Shown: in pieces, positions 6,120 through 24,508 of the stretch | Layout: each line of letters opens with the position of its first letter | Numbering within the stretch: the first letter of the stretch is position 1 | NCBI GenBank assembly: GCA_041746575.1 | Contig: JBGTGT010000117.1 | Span: 1 to 40,947, forward strand | Length of the DNA stretch: 40,947 bases | Direction: 5' to 3' | DNA from: Microcystaceae cyanobacterium | GTDB taxonomy: Bacteria > Cyanobacteriota > Cyanobacteriia > Cyanobacteriales > Microcystaceae | Notes under the pieces: generated by a model | Seen by the model: the letters and a program-made list of their open reading frames with translations, nothing else | What the model was told of the DNA's origin: nothing | The model's database searches: none | Made by a program: the position numbers and the translations under genes

Positions 6120-6962
6120 ATGAATTTAGAAAATAACCTGAGATCAAAAATTATTGCGCAATGTCAATATGCGCTACAGACGGGAGCGTTACAAACGATT
6201 GAAACGAATTATGAATTGATTGAAGATCAGGGAATGCAATTTTTAGTACGAATTTTGACTAACTTAAGCCGAAAAGAAACTGCTCAGCCCAAAAAACCGC
6301 AAGGCGTTAATCCTTTTTTGCCTTACGAACCCGATTTATTTGTCAGTTATTTATCTGATACTCATCTTTGTTTATTGAACAAATATAATGTTGTTAATCA
6401 TCATATTTTAATTGTTACACGTCACTATGAAGAGCAAGAAAATGGGTTAAATTCAGCAGATTTTGAAGCGTTAGCCTTGACGTTAAAACAGATTAACGGT
6501 CTCGGATTTTATAACGGTGGAACGTTGGCAGGGGCGAGTCAAAAACACAAACATTTGCAGGTTGCCCCTTTTCCATTAATGCCGAATAATATGCCTTTGC
6601 CCCTTGAATCTGCCCTTAAACAAGCCCAATTTAAAGATGAGATTGGCAGAATTCCCCTTTACCCATTTCCCCATGCTATTGGTTTATTGAATCCCTCAAT
6701 GAGTGCTGAAGATTGGCTAAAAAGCTATTATATTTTACTCCAAAAAATTGGTTTAAACGTAGAAGGACTAAAGCAAACGGGCGCGTATAATCTATTAATC
6801 ACTCAAGATTGGATGATGGTGGTAAAGCGATCGCATGAACATTTTCAAGGGATCCCTGTTAATGCGTTGGGTTTTGCCGGAACTTTGCTGGTTAAAAATC
6901 AAGCCCAATTATTATTACTTAAACGCATAACTCCTCTTCAACTTTTGCAAAAAGTTTGCTAA
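6120..6962 (+). CDS. ATP adenylyltransferase / Ap4A phosphorylase II family
   Basis: NPFLPYE, LNKYNVV..HIL and FYNGG..AGASQKHKHLQ (HxHxQ) motifs. Confidence 0.88.
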   Translation: MNLENNLRSKIIAQCQYALQTGALQTIETNYELIEDQGMQFLVRILTNLSRKETAQPKKPQGVNPFLPYEPDLFVSYLSDTHLCLLNKYNVVNHHILIVTRHYEEQENGLNSADFEALALTLKQINGLGFYNGGTLAGASQKHKHLQVAPFPLMPNNMPLPLESALKQAQFKDEIGRIPLYPFPHAIGLLNPSMSAEDWLKSYYILLQKIGLNVEGLKQTGAYNLLITQDWMMVVKRSHEHFQGIPVNALGFAGTLLVKNQAQLLLLKRITPLQLLQKVC

Positions 6963-16964: not shown

Positions 16965-17178
16965 AACTGTTCCGAGATCCTAGATAGCTGTGAATAAACT
17001 TTCAACAATATGTTGATAATAAACCTAAGAGTGATTTAATTTAACACTATCTTTAGATTTTAGAATAGGGGTAGCGCAAAATCTCAACAAATTTTCTATC
17101 TTTTTGGAGAGTTGTTATCTATGCTACCATTTTGCCAAAATCTGAACTGAGAAAAATTCTTTTAAATTAGGAGCAGAC

Positions 17179-18384
17179 TTGAAAAATGACGAATTCTTTG
17201 CCATATTATCTCACAAGTCAATTTCATTGCCCATCACCCGTTCTCTCTGTTCAATGGACACTATAAAGATCGTGTCAATTCAACTTCTTCTCTTCGTCGA
17301 TGATCGCCCCAGTTCTCAAGCTCATATTGAGAAAGTAGCCGAACAGCTTCAAAAAGTGGCGGATGGAATGCCTTATGACTTACAAATTATTGAAATTGGC
17401 GAACAGCCTCATCTTGTTGAACATTTCCGGCTTATTGCGACACCTGCTTTAGTCAAAATTTTCCCAGAACCTCGTCAGACTTTAGCGGGGAGTAATATTG
17501 TTCAGCAGATTGATCGCTGTTGGCCTCGATGGGTACAGGCATTTGAGATTTATCGCCAGCAAGAACGAGACCACAAAACTTTAAAACTAAATAATCCTCA
17601 AGAAATCAGTTATTCATCTGAAATTGTGCGAATGTCTGATGAAATTTTTCGCTTAAAAAAGGACAAAGAGGCACTTCTTGATCAATTAAAGTTTAAAGAT
17701 CAAATTTTGGCCATGTTAGCCCATGATTTACGAAGTCCTTTAACAGCCGCTTCAATGGCGGTAGATACTTTAGAAATTGCAGATAATCAAGAAGAGTCTA
17801 CCCGAATTCAAAAGTTAAAAATTCAACTTTATCAGCAGGCAAAAAAGCAGTTTAAACTAATGAATCGTCTCATCACTGATATTTTGCAAGCCTCAAAAAC
17901 GATAAATTCTCAGTTAAACTTAAATCACTCTAAAGTATTGATGCAGGATCTCTGCGAAGATATTTTATATCAATTGACAGGTCAATTTAAAGCAAAGAAT
18001 TTAACGATAAATAGGGATATTCCCCAAGATTTACACTCCATTTATGCCGATGAAGAAATGATTCGTCAAGTGGTCGTTAATTTATTAGAAAATGCCATCA
18101 AATATACCCCTGAATCGGGGACAATTAGCTTGTCTATTCTCCATCGCACAACCCAAAAAATTCAAGTGAGTATCTGTGATACAGGACCGGGTATTCCAAA
18201 GGAAAAACAAGAGCGCATCTTTGAAGGACATTTTCGTTTACAACGGGATGAAAGCAAGGAAGGATATGGCTTAGGTTTATCTTTATGTCGTAAAATTGTT
18301 CAAGCCCATTATGGTCACATTTGGGTAGATAGTTTGATGAATAGGGGCAGTTGTTTTCATTTTACGTTGCCCGTTTATCGTTGA
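17179..18384 (+). CDS. sasA: Circadian output histidine kinase SasA
   Basis: N-terminal KaiB-like domain (QLLLFVD..PHLVEHFRLIATPALVKIFPEPRQTLAG), AHDLRSPL and intact N/G boxes. TTG start follows AGGAG; alternative ATG at 17254. Confidence 0.92.
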   Translation: MKNDEFFAILSHKSISLPITRSLCSMDTIKIVSIQLLLFVDDRPSSQAHIEKVAEQLQKVADGMPYDLQIIEIGEQPHLVEHFRLIATPALVKIFPEPRQTLAGSNIVQQIDRCWPRWVQAFEIYRQQERDHKTLKLNNPQEISYSSEIVRMSDEIFRLKKDKEALLDQLKFKDQILAMLAHDLRSPLTAASMAVDTLEIADNQEESTRIQKLKIQLYQQAKKQFKLMNRLITDILQASKTINSQLNLNHSKVLMQDLCEDILYQLTGQFKAKNLTINRDIPQDLHSIYADEEMIRQVVVNLLENAIKYTPESGTISLSILHRTTQKIQVSICDTGPGIPKEKQERIFEGHFRLQRDESKEGYGLGLSLCRKIVQAHYGHIWVDSLMNRGSCFHFTLPVYR

Positions 18385-18703
18385 GTGACACGGATATTTA
18401 AATTTCGGGGAAAGGTTACAATTTTTCTAACTGAAAGACAGCTATTGGTCAGGGAAAATCAGACTGTCGCTAGGGTTTAATTTTTGCTTTTTCTAAAGAT
18501 AAAATCGCCTTTTCAATTAGTCATTCATAAAAACGGAATTTTTGCTGTTTGAAATACTCCTTTAGGGGTAATTTTTAGACGTTTTTGGCTCATAGATGCA
18601 ACAAAACACACTTATTTCTTTAAATGTGTTTCACTTTACCATGTTGATCGTAAAAAATCTATTACAATAACAATGTTACAAAACTTAATTTTATTTCTCA
18701 AGA

Positions 18704-18997
18704 GTGACTATGGCGATTAATCTTCGCAAACAACGCATCTTAGACCATCTCAAGCAAAGTGCCGATGGCGTGCAATATGCGCCTAAAAAGACAACTCGCT
18801 CAACATCTTCCCCTGCTCCTGTTGTGATTCCTGAAGTTGCATCTTCGCCTGCCCCTGTATTTACGATGAGTCGCAAACAAAAGGTGATGAATCATGTTAA
18901 AACGAGCAGTTCTGAATTTGGGGACTTTACCCTAGAAACGCCAGATCGTCGTAAAAGACAGATTCACGCTCATTTAAAAAAAAGCTTAGGCGTTTAA
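18704..18997 (+). CDS. Small basic hypothetical protein with three RK-x2-(I/V)-x2-H-(L/V)K-x-S motifs
   Basis: RKQRILDHLKQS, RKQKVMNHVKTS and RKRQIHAHLKKS. Likely start GTG 18704 or ATG 18710. The stop codon lies inside CRISPR repeat 1. Confidence 0.75.
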   Translation: MTMAINLRKQRILDHLKQSADGVQYAPKKTTRSTSSPAPVVIPEVASSPAPVFTMSRKQKVMNHVKTSSSEFGDFTLETPDRRKRQIHAHLKKSLGV

Positions 18998-19178
18998 ATT
19001 CTCTATCCCCTTAATAGGAAATAGTCACAGTTAATAATTCAAAAAACCATGCTTCTGCTTCGGTTTAAATTCTCTATCTCCTTAATAGGAAATGGTCACT
19101 CTGGCGGTAGAAACCACCTTACCACCCTGTACTCATGGTGAGTGTAAATTCTCTATCCCCTTAATAGGAAATAGTCAC
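18992..19178 (-). CRISPR. CRISPR mini-array: three 37-bp repeats and two spacers (34 and 42 bp)
   Basis: GTTTAAATTCTCTATCCCCTTAATAGGAAATAGTCAC at 18992-19028, 19063-19099 (2 mismatches) and 19142-19178 (1 mismatch), with unique spacers. The minus-strand form ends TTTAAAC and folds CTATTTCCT/AGGGGATAG with G-U pairs. It abuts cas3. Confidence 0.9.
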
Positions 19179-19179
19179 A

Positions 19180-19392
19180 GCAATAAATCTGCCGAATGCG
19201 ATCGCTTATGTTATTGCTGGACATCATACCCAATTAAAAAGTCAAGATGAGTTATGGGATGAATATCCCGAAGATAGCGAAGACTGGGAAAATTGCCGAG
19301 AAATTGCCCAAACGGAAATTGATAACTTAATTCCAGACACCTTACCAAAAATTACTTTACCGAATAAACTACGCAGAGAATTTGCGATTAGA
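19180..19392 (+). pseudogene. cas3: Start-less in-frame remnant of the Cas3 HD-nuclease domain
   Basis: In frame with ATG 19393: AINLPNAIAYVIAGHHTQL...RREFAIR, then MLFSALVDAD. In-frame stops TAA-TAG at 19162-19167 lie inside repeat 3. Confidence 0.85.
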
Positions 19393-21030
19393 ATGTTATT
19401 TTCTGCCTTAGTGGATGCAGATCGCTTTAATGCAATGAAATTTGAAGCAGGACAGGAAGATCCTGCCCTTAATTTGCTAAACTATCAATTAGTTTCAATT
19501 CTCGATTCTAAATTCAAACCTACTAATTTACCAGAAAGTAAGACAAAGATAGATGAACTTAGAAACGTCTTCGCTCAACATTGTATCAACTTTGCTGAAA
19601 ATGCAAGAGGATTTTATCGGTTAACGGGGGTATGTGGTATTGGCAAAACTATGAGTAGTTTACGATTTGCCTATCTTCATGCTCAAAAACATCAAATGAA
19701 AGGAATTATTTATGTTGCATCTCTAAAAGTAATTATTGAACAAACAGCACAAATTTATAAACAGGAATTCGGGGAAGATCAAGTATTAGAACATCATAGC
19801 GATTATGAGCCAAAATTATCAGAATTTCTTAACTATAAACTCGATACAGAAAGATGGAATAAACCTTATATTGTCACAACTGCTGTTCAATTTTTTGAAT
19901 CATTATTTTCCAATAAACCCAGTCGTTGCCGTAAATTGCATAATATTATCAATCGAGTTATTTTAATTGATGAAGCGCAAAGTATTCCTCCTAAATTTGC
20001 CCGATGTATTCTCGATGCTTTAAATACCTTAGTTGAGGATTATGGTTGTACAGTCGTTTTAATGAGTGCAACCCAACCCGCCTTTGATCGTTTTAACTCT
20101 TCTGAAATTAAAAATATTAACTTTATTGATATTATCGAACAAAAAGAAGTCGTAAAGCAATTTAAAACTTTAAAACGAGTTACCTATAAACCTGTATTAG
20201 ATATAGAGTGGACATGGCAAGATTTAGCAGAAGATATTATAACTTCAGGCTTCCAACAGAGTTTAACGGTTGTTAATACGACTCAACTAGCAAGAGATGG
20301 CTACTATCAATTAAAAGAATTAGTCGGTAGAAACTGGTATCATTTATCTTCCAGAATGTGTCCAGCCCATCGTAGTAAAATTATTAATAATTTACCTAAT
20401 AATCCTAAACACTGGGGTCAATCTTGTCATTTGATTAGTACCTCTATTGTAGAAGCTGGTGTTGATTTAGACTTTCCTAGAGTATATCGTCAATTAACCT
20501 CCTTGGACTCGATTATTCAAACCGCAGGGAGGGGAAACCGCAATGGATTTTTAGAGGCTTTAGAAGCCATTGTTACTATTTTTAGAATGGCAGACAATAA
20601 TCCAAGAGATAATGATTTAAGAGAAAAAATAAATATTACGAAAAATATTATTAATCAAAATCCCCAAGCCCTTGAGCAAGATATGCTTGAATCGCTTGTT
20701 CAATATTTTAAAAAGATATATACCCACTGGCAAAATAAAGACATCATTCAACCCTTAAGAAAAGCCTATAATTATCCTAAAGTTGCTCAAGCATTTCAAC
20801 TCATTGATGATGATTATAATATATCAGTGCTTTGTCCTTGGGAAAAAGGAACTGACTATACTCAAGAATTACAAAACAAAGAGAATCTAACCTTAGCAGA
20901 CTATCGGAAAATTCAGCCTTATTCCGCCAAAGTTTCTCAACAACAGGCCAAATTCGTCACAGAATGTCAGAACGGACTTAACATTTGGCAAACAGATTAT
21001 GATAAACATACAGGATGCTCACAAACTTAG
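19393..21030 (+). CDS. cas3: CRISPR-associated helicase Cas3 (type I-C-like), N-terminally truncated, HD motif missing
   Basis: LFSALVDAD, GxGKT, IIEQTA, VLEHHS, VTTAVQFFESLFSNKPSRCRKLHNI, IDEAQS, LMSATQP, STSIVEAGVDLDF and IIQTAGRGNR. Confidence 0.9.
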   Translation: MLFSALVDADRFNAMKFEAGQEDPALNLLNYQLVSILDSKFKPTNLPESKTKIDELRNVFAQHCINFAENARGFYRLTGVCGIGKTMSSLRFAYLHAQKHQMKGIIYVASLKVIIEQTAQIYKQEFGEDQVLEHHSDYEPKLSEFLNYKLDTERWNKPYIVTTAVQFFESLFSNKPSRCRKLHNIINRVILIDEAQSIPPKFARCILDALNTLVEDYGCTVVLMSATQPAFDRFNSSEIKNINFIDIIEQKEVVKQFKTLKRVTYKPVLDIEWTWQDLAEDIITSGFQQSLTVVNTTQLARDGYYQLKELVGRNWYHLSSRMCPAHRSKIINNLPNNPKHWGQSCHLISTSIVEAGVDLDFPRVYRQLTSLDSIIQTAGRGNRNGFLEALEAIVTIFRMADNNPRDNDLREKINITKNIINQNPQALEQDMLESLVQYFKKIYTHWQNKDIIQPLRKAYNYPKVAQAFQLIDDDYNISVLCPWEKGTDYTQELQNKENLTLADYRKIQPYSAKVSQQQAKFVTECQNGLNIWQTDYDKHTGCSQT

Positions 21031-21075
21031 TCTTTCATCACTCAGTATTAATATTAAGATACGTCACTGAATTGA

Positions 21076-22761
21076 TCAACGCATGATAAAACGGGTTTTA
21101 GAAATTTGCAGACTGAGGAAAATAACAGGGATAATTCCCACCAAAACGATCGCTAAAGCGGGTGCAGACGCTTCTACTAAACGTTCATCTGAGGCATACT
21201 GAAAAACGCGTATCGCTAGGGTATCAAAATTAAAAGGACGAATCAACAATGTAGCTGGTAATTCTTTCATTACATCCACAAATACTAACATGATCGCCGT
21301 TAACATTCCCCCTGTCATCAAAGGCGCATGAACCTTTAATAGGGTGTTTAAAGGAGGATTACCCAGACTACGAGAGGCATCATCCAAACTGGGTTTAATT
21401 TTGCCTAAACTGGTTTCTACTGCCCCAAATCCAACGGCAAGAAATCGTACCAGATAAGCATAAATCAAAGCAATAATCGTGCCACTAAAGATTAATCCCG
21501 TGGAAATGCCAAACGTGCTTAAAAACCAACTATCTAGGGCATTATCAAGCTTTGCCATCTGAATATACGCTCCTACCGCAATCACAGAACCCGGTATCGC
21601 ATATCCCATTGAGGCAATTTTCACCCCTAAACCCATACTCCAATTAGGATACAAGCGATAGCCATAAGCCATAATTAAGCAGATAATTACAGCAATTCCC
21701 CCACTTAACAGGGCTAAAATTAGGCTATGGGAGGCTAAATCCCAAAAAGTATCATCGAGGGTGGTTTCTAAATTATTGAGGGTTAAATAAGCTAAATACA
21801 GGGCAGGCAAGATAAATCCTAAGACCACTACTGTCAGACAAAGTAGAAATGCCCCTATTCCTCGAAGTCCTTGTAAATAATAAGGATTTAAGACACTTTT
21901 GGGGCTACTGACTTGATAGTAACGAGCTTGTCGACGGGAGGCTAACTCTAAGCTAATGAGAAGAAAAATAAATCCCATTAACACCGCCGCTAATTGAGTT
22001 GCCGCCGCTAAATCCCCTAACCCAAACCATGTATTATAAATTCCTGTCGTGAAGGTGTTTACGCCAAAATACTGCACGGTGCCAAATTCATTCAGCGTTT
22101 CCATTAAAACTAAAGATAATCCTGCAATAATCGCTGGACGAGCCAAAGGAAGAGCAATTTTAAAGAAACTCCGCCAAGGATTACAACCTAATGAACGACT
22201 TGCCTCTAAGGTAGCCACGGACTGACCTAAAAAAGCCATTCTTGCCAATAAATAAACGTAGGGATAGAGAACAAGGGTCAGCATCAGAATAGCTCCCCAA
22301 AGGGTGCGAATATTAGGAAACCAGTAATCTTCTACGCTAGCCCAGCCAAAAATATACCGTAAGAAACGTTGAACAGGTCCAAAATAGTCCAACATATCAG
22401 TATAAGTGTAGGCGAGAAGATAGGCCGGTGCCGCTAACGGTAATAATAACCCCCATTCAAACCAGCGATCGCCCGGAAAACGGCAAAGGGTCACTAACCA
22501 AGCAGTGGATACCCCAATTAGGACGACACCGATTCCTACACAGAGCATTAGCAAGAAAGAATTGATCAAATAATCGCTGAGAACTGTTTCTGCTAAATGT
22601 TGCCAAACATCACCGACATTAACCCAGAAACTCGATAAAACAAATAAAATGGGGGCGGCAATTAACAGGGCAATCCCCATGACGAAAATTAACCAACCTT
22701 GATTGAGAAATCGGTTGAGGGAAAAAATGGGTTTCCCTTGATGAGTATAAGGTTCTATCAT
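21076..22761 (-). CDS. futB: Ferric iron ABC transporter permease (FutB/FbpB family)
   Basis: LLPLAAPAYLLAYTY, two EAA-like loops (EASRSLG, DASRSLG) and KELPATLLIRPFNFDTLA. Confidence 0.9.
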   Translation of the reverse strand: MIEPYTHQGKPIFSLNRFLNQGWLIFVMGIALLIAAPILFVLSSFWVNVGDVWQHLAETVLSDYLINSFLLMLCVGIGVVLIGVSTAWLVTLCRFPGDRWFEWGLLLPLAAPAYLLAYTYTDMLDYFGPVQRFLRYIFGWASVEDYWFPNIRTLWGAILMLTLVLYPYVYLLARMAFLGQSVATLEASRSLGCNPWRSFFKIALPLARPAIIAGLSLVLMETLNEFGTVQYFGVNTFTTGIYNTWFGLGDLAAATQLAAVLMGFIFLLISLELASRRQARYYQVSSPKSVLNPYYLQGLRGIGAFLLCLTVVVLGFILPALYLAYLTLNNLETTLDDTFWDLASHSLILALLSGGIAVIICLIMAYGYRLYPNWSMGLGVKIASMGYAIPGSVIAVGAYIQMAKLDNALDSWFLSTFGISTGLIFSGTIIALIYAYLVRFLAVGFGAVETSLGKIKPSLDDASRSLGNPPLNTLLKVHAPLMTGGMLTAIMLVFVDVMKELPATLLIRPFNFDTLAIRVFQYASDERLVEASAPALAIVLVGIIPVIFLSLQISKTRFIMR

Positions 22762-22846
22762 AATAATTTTGTTTCATCTATAGCGTTCACTTTATCTTAT
22801 TATTTACTTTATAAATATCATTCGTTCTACCACTAGGTATTTTATA

Positions 22847-24508
22847 ATGACGACGCAACTAACGGATACAGGCTGGAACGGAGATACTTCAGGGACTTGG
22901 ACATCTGGAGATGATGCGGTGATTGATCCAGACGATGGAATTAACGTTCCCCCAAATACCCTTGTCAATACCCAAGCAGGGGATGATGTGATCAACGGCA
23001 CGGATACCGATAACCAACCGAGCATAACCGATACTGGCCTTGCGAATCAAGGCATCATTGAGACCAAAGCAGGTGACGACACCGTAATCGGGAAAGCTGA
23101 GACAACTGCCAACGGTACTGACGTTCAAGCCTTTGCCAAAGGTATTGATAATACCCAAGGCATCATTGACACAGGGACAGGGGACGATATTGTAAAGGGA
23201 ACGGCTGAGGCTACGGCTGAAGGCACTGGATTTGTAGAGGCGATCGCCATTGGTATTGACAATGGGGGGGAAATTAAAACCGATGCGGGTGACGATAAGG
23301 TCATTGGTAAGGCTGAGGCTACCGTAGAAGGCACGGCAGATGTGGCTTTTCCTTTTGTTGTAGGAATCGATAATACGCGAGGGACAATTACAACCAAGGC
23401 GGGTGACGACACTGTTAAAGGAAACGCACAGGGGACAGCCAATAGCATTGAAAACGTTGTCTTTGCTATCGGCATTGATAATACTCAGGGTAGCATCAAA
23501 ACGGGTGCGGGCGATGATATCGTTAAAGGAAAAGCAACGGCGGTGGCAGAAGGCACGGAAGTCGATATTACGGCAACAGGCATCGACAATTTTCAAGGTC
23601 TCTTTGGCAGTAACGAAGTCATGATTAGAACAGGTGCAGGTAACGACACCGTAAAAGGGAAAGCGAAGGGTACGGCTCAGAGTCAAGAAAACGACGCCAG
23701 TGCCGCTGTTACAGGGATTATTAATTTTAGCGAGATGGCTCGGATTAAGACCAGTGCGCTCGATGATACTATCCAAGGGGTCGCTAAAGCAACAGTTGAA
23801 AGTAAAGGAGGTTTCGCCAGTGCTTCAGCCACGGGAATTCTTAATTTCGGAGATATTAGGACCGGCAAGAGCAATGATACTGTGATTGGGAAAGCAAAGA
23901 CAGTGGCTAAAGGCACTGAAGTTGAAAGTCTTGCCAGAGGAATTGACAACATTGGGGCAATTAAGACGAACGAAGGCAACGACATCGTAAGGGGAATCGC
24001 TGAAGCCACGGCAGAAGGTACTAAAGAGATTGAGATAGTTGCTATTGGTATCGACAATACGGGGAAGGCTGGAGAAATTATGACGGGGATAGGTGATGAT
24101 GCCGTCATTGGCAAGGCAAACGCCATTGGATTTAATGCCACTGCTACAGGAATTCGCAATACGCAGATTCGGTTAGGAGGAGGTGATGACACCCTGATTG
24201 CCAAAGCCACAGGTACAGGTGTTAATCTAGGGATTGACGATGTGCTGCTCGACGGGGGAGGGGGTAAAGATACCTTTGATATTCAAAATGGCAACGGCAC
24301 AATTATTGGGGGTTCGGGTCAAAAAGATTTGTTGATATTAGAAGGATTAAAGAGTGATTATACTTTTACTGAGCTTTCTTCCTTGTCTCTGGGTGTCTCG
24401 ATCACGAATGCTAAGAATTTCACGGATTTAATTGTCAGTGAGGTTGAGTTATTTCAGTTTTCGGGAGACCCGACTTTAACTTATACCTACGAAAATATTA
24501 GAGTGTAA
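22847..24508 (+). CDS. RTX/hemolysin-type Ca-binding-like repeat protein, probably secreted
   Basis: About ten ~40-aa repeats of GI(D/x)N..I.TG.G(D/N)D.V.GKA.AT..G. C-terminal DYTF..TDLIVSEVELFQFS. No signal peptide. Confidence 0.8.
   Translation: MTTQLTDTGWNGDTSGTWTSGDDAVIDPDDGINVPPNTLVNTQAGDDVINGTDTDNQPSITDTGLANQGIIETKAGDDTVIGKAETTANGTDVQAFAKGIDNTQGIIDTGTGDDIVKGTAEATAEGTGFVEAIAIGIDNGGEIKTDAGDDKVIGKAEATVEGTADVAFPFVVGIDNTRGTITTKAGDDTVKGNAQGTANSIENVVFAIGIDNTQGSIKTGAGDDIVKGKATAVAEGTEVDITATGIDNFQGLFGSNEVMIRTGAGNDTVKGKAKGTAQSQENDASAAVTGIINFSEMARIKTSALDDTIQGVAKATVESKGGFASASATGILNFGDIRTGKSNDTVIGKAKTVAKGTEVESLARGIDNIGAIKTNEGNDIVRGIAEATAEGTKEIEIVAIGIDNTGKAGEIMTGIGDDAVIGKANAIGFNATATGIRNTQIRLGGGDDTLIAKATGTGVNLGIDDVLLDGGGGKDTFDIQNGNGTIIGGSGQKDLLILEGLKSDYTFTELSSLSLGVSITNAKNFTDLIVSEVELFQFSGDPTLTYTYENIRV

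Follow-up and report, generated by a model that had tools for sequence, protein, structure and literature searches.

The stretch of DNA analysed here, referred to as the window, is the entire 40,947-bp contig C117 of G000, a cyanobacterial-type genome that was assembled from a hot-spring metagenome as a 4.2-Mb draft of 134 contigs and is rated 99.8% complete. At positions 18992–21030, the window carries a CRISPR mini-array, which runs without a gap into a cas3 gene lacking its 5′ part. This region is very probably the scar that a deletion left of a type I-C CRISPR-Cas cassette without adaptation genes, and its present state is that of ordinary gene decay. The evidence consists of the junction itself, the anatomy of the remnant and its homology to intact cassettes; neither the cognate genes nor extra repeats were found in the assembly. 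An earlier sequence-only reading of the window had preferred the collapse of a type I-C-like locus as its explanation, and this preference is now supported by an intact cassette with a near-identical repeat in a related genome. A young deletion scar can mimic an intact-looking "solo Cas3" beside a mini-array. Taken alone, the scar matters little, as another example of the loss of CRISPR immunity in bacteria. The parts of the remnant are the following.

18992..19028, minus strand (sense strand): repeat R1, trailer end, from repeat search and folding
19029..19062, minus strand: spacer 1, 34 nt, between R1 and R2
19063..19099, minus strand: repeat R2, with two hairpin-weakening substitutions, 90% identical to R1 over 39 nt
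19100..19141, minus strand: spacer 2, 42 nt, between R2 and R3
19142..19178, minus strand: repeat R3, whose 11-nt handle has a single substitution (..TTTACAC for ..TTTAAAC) and which adjoins the cas3 remnant with the first base of its sense strand
19179..19392, plus strand: residual second half of the cas3 HD domain (IAGHH and the start of LVDAD), in frame, without an ATG, GTG or TTG start
19393..21030, plus strand: Cas3 superfamily 2 (SF2) helicase core and C-terminal domain, 545 codons, HD nuclease gone, from the open reading frame (ORF), profile matches and alignment

The remnant is AT-richer than its surroundings, as had been noted earlier, with a GC content of 0.31–0.35 over 19250–20999 vs. 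0.34–0.49 in the flanks. A Pfam scan of the 34 ORFs of the window found no further cas genes, in agreement with the earlier reading, and an Rfam search of 18300–21300 returned zero families at E values up to 1.

The truncated cas3 frame

The cas3 frame is open for 615 codons without a stop or frameshift. Past two stops inside R3, the reading frame is open from 19168 to its own stop at 21028–21030; it reads AINLPNAIAYVIAGHH and then LVDAD. The first ATG, GTG or TTG lies at 19393, from which 545 amino acids (aa) are encoded, so that the uninterrupted 545 codons from an ATG at this position, which the sequence-only reading had described, are borne out by translation. Its description of a three-repeat array abutting a cas3 sequence that starts in the middle of the HD domain also holds, the repeats spanning 18992–19178 and the NCBIfam cas3_HD profile being matched by read-through residues 3–84 only over positions 89–177 of 178 (34.3 bits vs. 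a cut-off of 43.45). A complete N-terminal HD nuclease fused to the helicase is therefore not what the window encodes. All 15 full-length homologues (666–739 aa) possess ~85–95 extra N-terminal residues, including WHDLGK, which are missing from the window, and the H and HD motifs found in each of the 15 aligned homologues are both absent from it.

The helicase motifs GIGKT, DEAQ, SAT and QTAGRGNR are all present in the window frame. The Pfam family PF22590 (Cas3-like_C_2) is matched with 53 bits (cut-off 27), ResIII is also matched, and TIGR01587 (cas3_core) reaches 101.3 bits, just under its cut-off of 102.45, with the intact protein of the closest relative at 105.3 bits. The Walker A sequence GVCGIGKT had been regarded as atypical; however, it is the normal motif of this clade, since 12 of the 15 homologues carry CG[IV]GKT and three carry the identical octamer. 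The closest relative is P0002, a full-length Cas3 of 701 aa encoded on contig C226 of genome G003, with 77% amino acid and 80% nucleotide identity, and on the basis of this alignment the window protein is judged to be a Cas3 by descent. By sequence, the solved chains nearest to P0002 are 8g9u_P and 8zns_A (E about 1e-73).

The mini-array

The 37-nt repeat occurs in three copies with start-to-start distances of 71 and 79 nt. Its 26-nt core has three matches in the 4.2-Mb genome, all of them in the window, and the reversed control has none. On the minus strand, R1 forms a hairpin of 9 bp followed by an 11-nt tail (− 9.2 kcal/mol, z − 2.8), compared with just − 4.5 kcal/mol on the plus strand, while the fold of R2 is reduced to 7 bp and − 6.0 kcal/mol. 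The sense strand of the array is thus opposite to that of cas3, and the mini-array faces away from the gene that it adjoins.

The array shows decay in that the three window repeats are three distinct sequences, whereas identical repeats make up 18 of 18 in the G003 relative, 20 of 20 in the relative from genome G210 and seven of eight in that from genome G147. Uniform repeats on the effector strand behind a leader, as expected of a working array, are not seen here: the leader is gone and R3 directly abuts cas3. With 42 nt, spacer 2 exceeds the spacers of the G003 relative (33–37 nt).

Spacer 1 has no full match in its own genome, the best being an 18-nt exact core with 21 of 34 positions matched overall, on contig C111; this leaves self-targeting by a surviving spacer, which was considered as a cause of the deletion, unsupported. 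The self matches of spacer 2 never exceed 16 nt, and neither spacer has an exact match in viral_contigs. The degenerate repeat pattern is also without a match in viral_contigs, and metagenome_contigs contain zero matches to the exact 26-nt core and to a pattern degenerate at two positions. Among 89 genomes of the family, the repeat occurs in two, G000 and G003.

Intact cassettes in related genomes

G003 belongs to the same family as G000 and to another genus. Its contig C226 (locus L092) carries, in this order, cas3, the divergent genes cas5c-cas8c-cas7, a 235-bp leader and an array in which the 37-nt repeat occurs unchanged at least 18 times; the other end of this array is on a second contig. 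Cas5c (103 bits, cut-off 85) and Cas7/Csd2 (270 bits, cut-off 182) are recognized by their profiles, and Cas8c/Csd1 scores 191.6 bits, which is under the cut-off of 218.65, yet is aligned over positions 1–586 of 592. When reverse-complemented, the G003 repeat differs from the window repeat by two mismatches, which leave the hairpin intact. The window therefore resembles a type I-C system in its Cas3 clade and in its repeat, whose 9-bp hairpin and 11-nt 3′ tail are near-identical to those of the G003 type I-C repeat. It differs from such a system in that Cas5c, Cas8c and Cas7 are gone, as are the leader and the first half of the HD domain of Cas3.

More distant relatives (49% identity) are intact in the closed genome G147 (C1:381000–399000, locus L131) and in G210 (C14:68000–81746, locus L132). 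The cassette is without cas1, cas2 and cas4 in all three intact loci examined (G003, G147 and G210), which documents a compact cyanobacterial type I-C cassette free of adaptation genes. The housekeeping genes between which it is inserted differ from locus to locus. In G147, the cassette lies directly between the phosphoribulokinase gene and hypB/A/E, and in G210 between the genes of transaldolase and pyruvate kinase on one side and an HlyD/ABC exporter on the other. The repeat strand reading GTGA...AAAC is the cas5-8-7 strand in each of these three relatives, and it is the minus strand in the window.

The Cas3 clade is present in 14 of 401 genomes sampled from the phylum, and an N-terminal cut is found in the window alone. 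Among the other 13 genomes, the frame is open over 677–804 aa in 12, with a match that begins no later than residue 38, and is cut C-terminally in the remaining one. A search for the same truncated architecture in other strains had been suggested by the sequence-only reading, and among the clade holders of this sample it leads back to the window only. Two genomes of the same genus, which are ~75% identical in DNA, have no cas3 homologue, and their counterparts of the flanking genes lie on other contigs with other neighbours; they therefore offer neither an empty site nor an intact site from which the deletion could be dated. A related-locus search of genome contigs yielded mostly distant Cas3 proteins (best 41%) and was not used.

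Broken forms of the Cas3 clade were also observed among P0023, P0014, P0016 and P0056; one of them, in the closed genome of Calothrix sp. PCC 7716, is an ORF of 501 aa without the HD domain. Another broken form is a 393-aa N-terminal piece in a Spirulina genome. P0023, P0014 and P0016 have full-length counterparts elsewhere that are at least 90% identical. The methionine of MLFSALVDAD was considered as a conserved internal start and rejected, as the database proteins of 550 and 553 aa that begin there share their 90% clusters with members of 701 and 705 aa; the 2393-bp contig of one short protein, which also carries a 92-aa N-terminal piece, undercuts the idea as well.

The deletion junction

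Nucleotide homology to the G003 cas3 gene (80%) extends over 19207–21029, and seven of the first ten bases after R3 match the same gene when read by eye. Based on these two observations, the alignment places the junction at 19178/19179, within a few bases, i.e., at the first sense-strand base of R3. The rest of the G003 locus has no other match to positions 17000–23000 of the window. One end of the lesion thus lies at the leader-side border of a repeat and the other inside cas3, with the effector genes not found, which is the anatomy of a repeat-anchored scar. Measured by the G003 locus, ~3.9 kb is missing from the window, and 4.4 kb when measured by G147, in addition to any lost repeat–spacer units. 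A junction microhomology between the repeat end and the G003 cas3 (GGAAATAG/GGAATAG) was dropped as a candidate, as the whole repeat end is retained.

In the proposed course of events, cas3 would originally have been divergent from cas5c-cas8c-cas7, with leader and array following the latter. One deletion, of ~3.9 kb or more, would have taken the leader-proximal repeats, if there were any, together with the leader, cas7, cas8c, cas5c, the divergent promoter region and cas3 codons 1 to ~88, and would have left a repeat fused, at its first sense-strand base, to cas3 halfway through the HD domain. That the helicase frame is still open would reflect the young age of the deletion (neutral divergence of no more than about 2.5%) and not retention of the frame, and any transcription would presumably come from the 97-aa ORF upstream, by read-through.

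CRISPR repeats are frequent sites of breaks or wrong joins in short-read assemblies, and the window is one contig of a genome assembled from a metagenome; the join of repeat and cas3 could therefore be an assembly artefact at the repeat, with the true locus intact. The junction was checked in contigs from four public sequencing runs of a single study, three of which are possibly the source of the assembly; the runs listed for this stretch included no RNA run. In all four runs, a contig begins 28 nt inside R3 and continues into cas3; it extends as far as 19501 in the fourth, low-depth run and to 21400 in the other three. Over 18300–21400, the contigs of three runs agree with the window in every letter, and a contig of the remaining run (X4) departs from it in one. 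A start 28 nt inside the repeat is the expected behaviour of a k = 31 unitig at a repeated word. The four runs report no loose ends or alternative joins, and the unitig graph is compatible with two paths only, the linear one of the assembly and one in which a repeat leads straight into cas3. Furthermore, in the three runs that list it, the depth of the 36-nt piece common to R1 and R3 is about double that of the flanks (55 vs. 28–30, 17.4 vs. 11 and 60 vs. 33–34), which fits two copies and speaks against a hidden long array. A search of the assembly found no cas5c, cas8c or cas7 and no cas3 N-terminus. Taken together, these results make an assembly artefact extremely unlikely.

Cognate genes and other CRISPR systems in the genome

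The tblastn searches of G000 with Cas5c, Cas8c and Cas7 of G003 gave best E values of 0.027, 0.063 and 1.5, respectively, and the profile TIGR01595 has no match in G000. The G003 Cas3 matches contig C117 only, over residues 90–701 (tblastn), and no second cas3_HD match in G000 is better than E 0.02. The Cas5c, Cas8c and Cas7 effectors of a functional type I-C locus were accordingly found neither in the window nor by the searches of G000. As predicted from its sequence, the remnant cannot perform CRISPR interference, for three reasons. First, the array, which is oriented away from cas3, is without a leader or promoter. Second, there is no Cas5c to process a transcript and no Cascade to carry it. 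Third, any Cas3 product would be without the H and HD metal-binding motifs.

Two other CRISPR systems were identified in G000. Contig C46 (6169–18600, locus L005) carries a type III-B locus with Cas10/Cmr2, Cmr4, a weak Cmr3 match, Cas1, Cas2 and a 26-repeat array. A Csm6-like gene of this contig appears as two adjacent ORFs, one matching the N-terminal and the other the C-terminal part of the profile, and may be split. Contig C104 (1550–8522, locus L096) carries a Cas3-less I-B/MYXAN Cascade, consisting of Cas6/Cmx6, a four-helix-bundle protein, Cas8a1/Cmx1, Cas7/DevR and Cas5/DevS, with a 4-repeat array of its own (6176–6438) whose repeat is unrelated to that of the window, and a 627-aa TnsD/TniQ protein follows directly. 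Contig C126 (9293–14423) carries a TnsA-like gene and a TniQ gene split into two frames, and C104 and C126 probably each carry a part of one type I-B CRISPR-associated transposon. CRISPR-associated transposons operate without Cas3. Beside this element, genes for a 1016-aa reverse-transcriptase protein and a UvrD-like helicase with a DEDD exonuclease domain, as well as a TnpB fragment, were observed.

These systems bear on the second explanation offered by the sequence-only reading, a helicase-plus-guide module in which CRISPR RNAs from the mini-array load a Cascade in trans, and a nuclease-dead Cas3 serves in silencing, priming or dominant-negative control. G000 does encode a Cas3-less type I Cascade, on C104, which speaks for such a module. 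However, this Cascade adjoins TnsD/TniQ, has its own unrelated array and is of the transposon type that works without Cas3, and neither a type I-C Cascade nor the Cas5c processing enzyme was found in G000. The mini-array is leaderless and antisense to cas3, two of its three repeats are altered in the hairpin or handle, and neither spacer has a target in the genome or, by exact search, in viral_contigs. The guide module is thus very unlikely and found no support. The search of the genome for Cascade genes and for the repeat, which the same reading had recommended, returned no type I-C genes, the repeat in the window only and, as the sole other type I Cascade, the Tn7-like one.

Decay or a retained helicase

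Another alternative to the deletion scar is that the 545-aa HD-less Cas3 helicase is expressed, e.g., by read-through, and selected for a stand-alone SF2 role outside interference, to which the array would be irrelevant. Helicase-only forms are known in nature: in the split Cas3′/Cas3″ and the type I-D Cas3′, the SF2 helicase does not carry the HD nuclease in the same polypeptide. In these systems, the HD nuclease is a separate protein or is part of Cas10d, and Cascade is present. By contrast, the HD domain is fused in 12 of the 13 further members of the clade found in the phylum sample, and the loss in the window is a truncation in the middle of the domain.

The relationship to intact cas3 was examined by pairwise comparison and in a tree of 19 sequences. 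The ratio of nonsynonymous to synonymous substitution (dN/dS) against the G003 cas3 is 0.167 (dS 0.82, dN 0.137). This comparison with an intact homologue had been called for by the sequence-only reading, and it could be computed, although the period after the deletion cannot be isolated from it. In the tree, the terminal branch of the window is 0.196 vs. 0.144 for its sister, a ratio of 1.36 that does not exceed the asymmetry seen in other sister pairs. Where at least 85% of 14 outgroups agree (204 columns), five deviations are specific to the window and one to P0002; those of the window include P180S, D226N and G234A, in the first RecA domain. The dN/dS value and the branch lengths fit a recent deletion without selection.

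The persistence of the open frame was assessed with a neutral-decay model, in which the excess branch corresponds to ~2.5% divergence or ~46 substitutions, and 5.7% of single changes make a stop. The chance that no stop arises is ~0.07 in this rough model, and ~0.07 is also obtained when the three repeat substitutions are used as the clock; both estimates ignore indels and assume that the repeat variants arose after the deletion, which they may predate.

Several points weigh against the plain deletion scar. A dN/dS of 0.167 indicates mostly purifying selection over the combined path, although it averages both lineages and covers mostly the time before the deletion. The 615-codon frame is intact against the estimated chance of ~0.07, which leaves room either for selection on the helicase or for repeat variants older than the deletion. 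The junction-crossing contig has 28 repeat-side letters, i.e., fewer than the 31-letter bridging rule asks for, and the four runs that contain it share one study and, in three cases, possibly their reads with the assembly. Genes could also lie on pieces of the metagenome-assembled draft that were left unassembled, and the lack of a TIGR01863 (Cas8c) match in G000 is a weak negative, its control having matched in no genome.

A retained helicase would account for the open frame, if decay has lasted as long as that of the repeats, and for the intact motifs GIGKT, DEAQ, SAT and QTAGRGNR, the last of which is also present in the intact P0002. It would agree with a terminal branch merely 1.36 times that of the sister. 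Expression by read-through is conceivable, as the 97-aa ORF upstream shares the strand of cas3, and beyond its stop the plus strand has no terminator-like sites other than two weak, overlapping ones inside cas3 (19447–19466). However, promoter-like sites are at chance level (13 vs. 10.3 ± 2.8 in shuffles), conserved columns have changed five times in the window vs. once in P0002, and the window holds the sole N-terminally cut form among the 14 clade-bearing genomes of the 401 in the phylum sample. Short proteins in the database share 90% clusters with full-length members, showing that they are breaks and not a conserved short form, and a recent deletion without selection fits the data too. We therefore regard a selected stand-alone helicase as unlikely, and ordinary decay after the deletion as the preferred explanation. 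Decay of the type I-C cassette seems common.

Deletions at repeat borders

This type of scar is already known, and the window is a type I-C, non-enterobacterial case of it. In Salmonella enterica, Cas deletions from the leader-side repeat end into cas3 are depicted as structures C–E (Fabre et al. 2012, PMC3356390), and in Table 3 of the same paper the rows delta-A1 to A7 share a common deletion start and have varying ends in cas3. Within these structures and rows, the likeness to the window is in the start exactly at the leader-side repeat end, the loss of the effectors and the cas3 stump welded to the array. We note four differences. First, the Salmonella scars described there are of type I-E, and that of the window is of type I-C. 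Second, cas3 is co-oriented with the operon in the type I-E scars, so that its 5′ part survives, whereas in the window the 3′ helicase part survives because cas3 is divergent from the effector genes. Third, the host of the window scar is of a cyanobacterial type. Fourth, its cassette is without a Cas1–Cas2 of its own. A limited literature search found no report of this locus.

Array ends flush with coding sequence in the window and in G003, together with the join to cas3 and the Salmonella precedent, hint at breakage at repeat borders. A broader proposal would be a general, directional mechanism, which breaks DNA exactly at repeat borders and deletes outward; we consider this proposal rather improbable. 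A bolder addition to it would be an HD-less helicase that is still under selection. A nick from an abortive Cas1–Cas2 integration could be the trigger of such breakage. If the proposal is true, the repeat-border mechanism extends to a second subtype and a second phylum, and to a cassette without its own integrase. The added type I-C case supports looking for a shared mechanism of cas deletions at repeat borders.

Genes flanking the remnant

As the sequence-only reading had stated, host genes lie on both sides of the remnant; upstream, these are a conserved 97-aa ORF and the gene of a KaiB-domain histidine kinase, and downstream, that of an ABC transporter permease. The two nearest are the following.

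18704..18997, plus strand: conserved host ORF, 97 aa, from the ORF list; its TAA stop (18995–18997) lies inside the terminal repeat
21076..22761, minus strand: ABC transporter permease (Pfam BPD_transp_1), which bounds the remnant and is convergent with cas3

The 97-aa ORF has no match in Pfam or NCBIfam, and its orthologue in the same-genus genome G001 is 50% identical (E 4e-30). The permease is 79% identical to its G001 orthologue, whose neighbourhood differs.

At the left edge of the array, the last sense codon of the 97-aa ORF, GGC, meets the repeat directly (18989–18997, GGC|GTT TAA). The GTT TAA of the repeat gives the ORF an extra valine and its stop (..KKSLGV-stop), and there are no intergenic bases. 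The G001 orthologue stops one codon sooner with a TAG of its own (..KKSLG-stop). In G003, the trailer-end repeat on contig C257 (7280–7507, locus L109) is likewise flush with a coding remnant that it truncates and that has a stop farther upstream. We take this coding stump to be a DUF29-like pseudogene.

Further downstream in the window, a 553-aa ORF (22847–24508, plus strand) without a Pfam or NCBIfam match consists of ~12 copies of a ~35-residue unit (..GIDNTxGxIxTGAGDDxVxGKAxATAEGT..) and a distinct C-terminal part. The GC content of this region is raised (0.45–0.49), and its GC skew is strong (up to 0.26).

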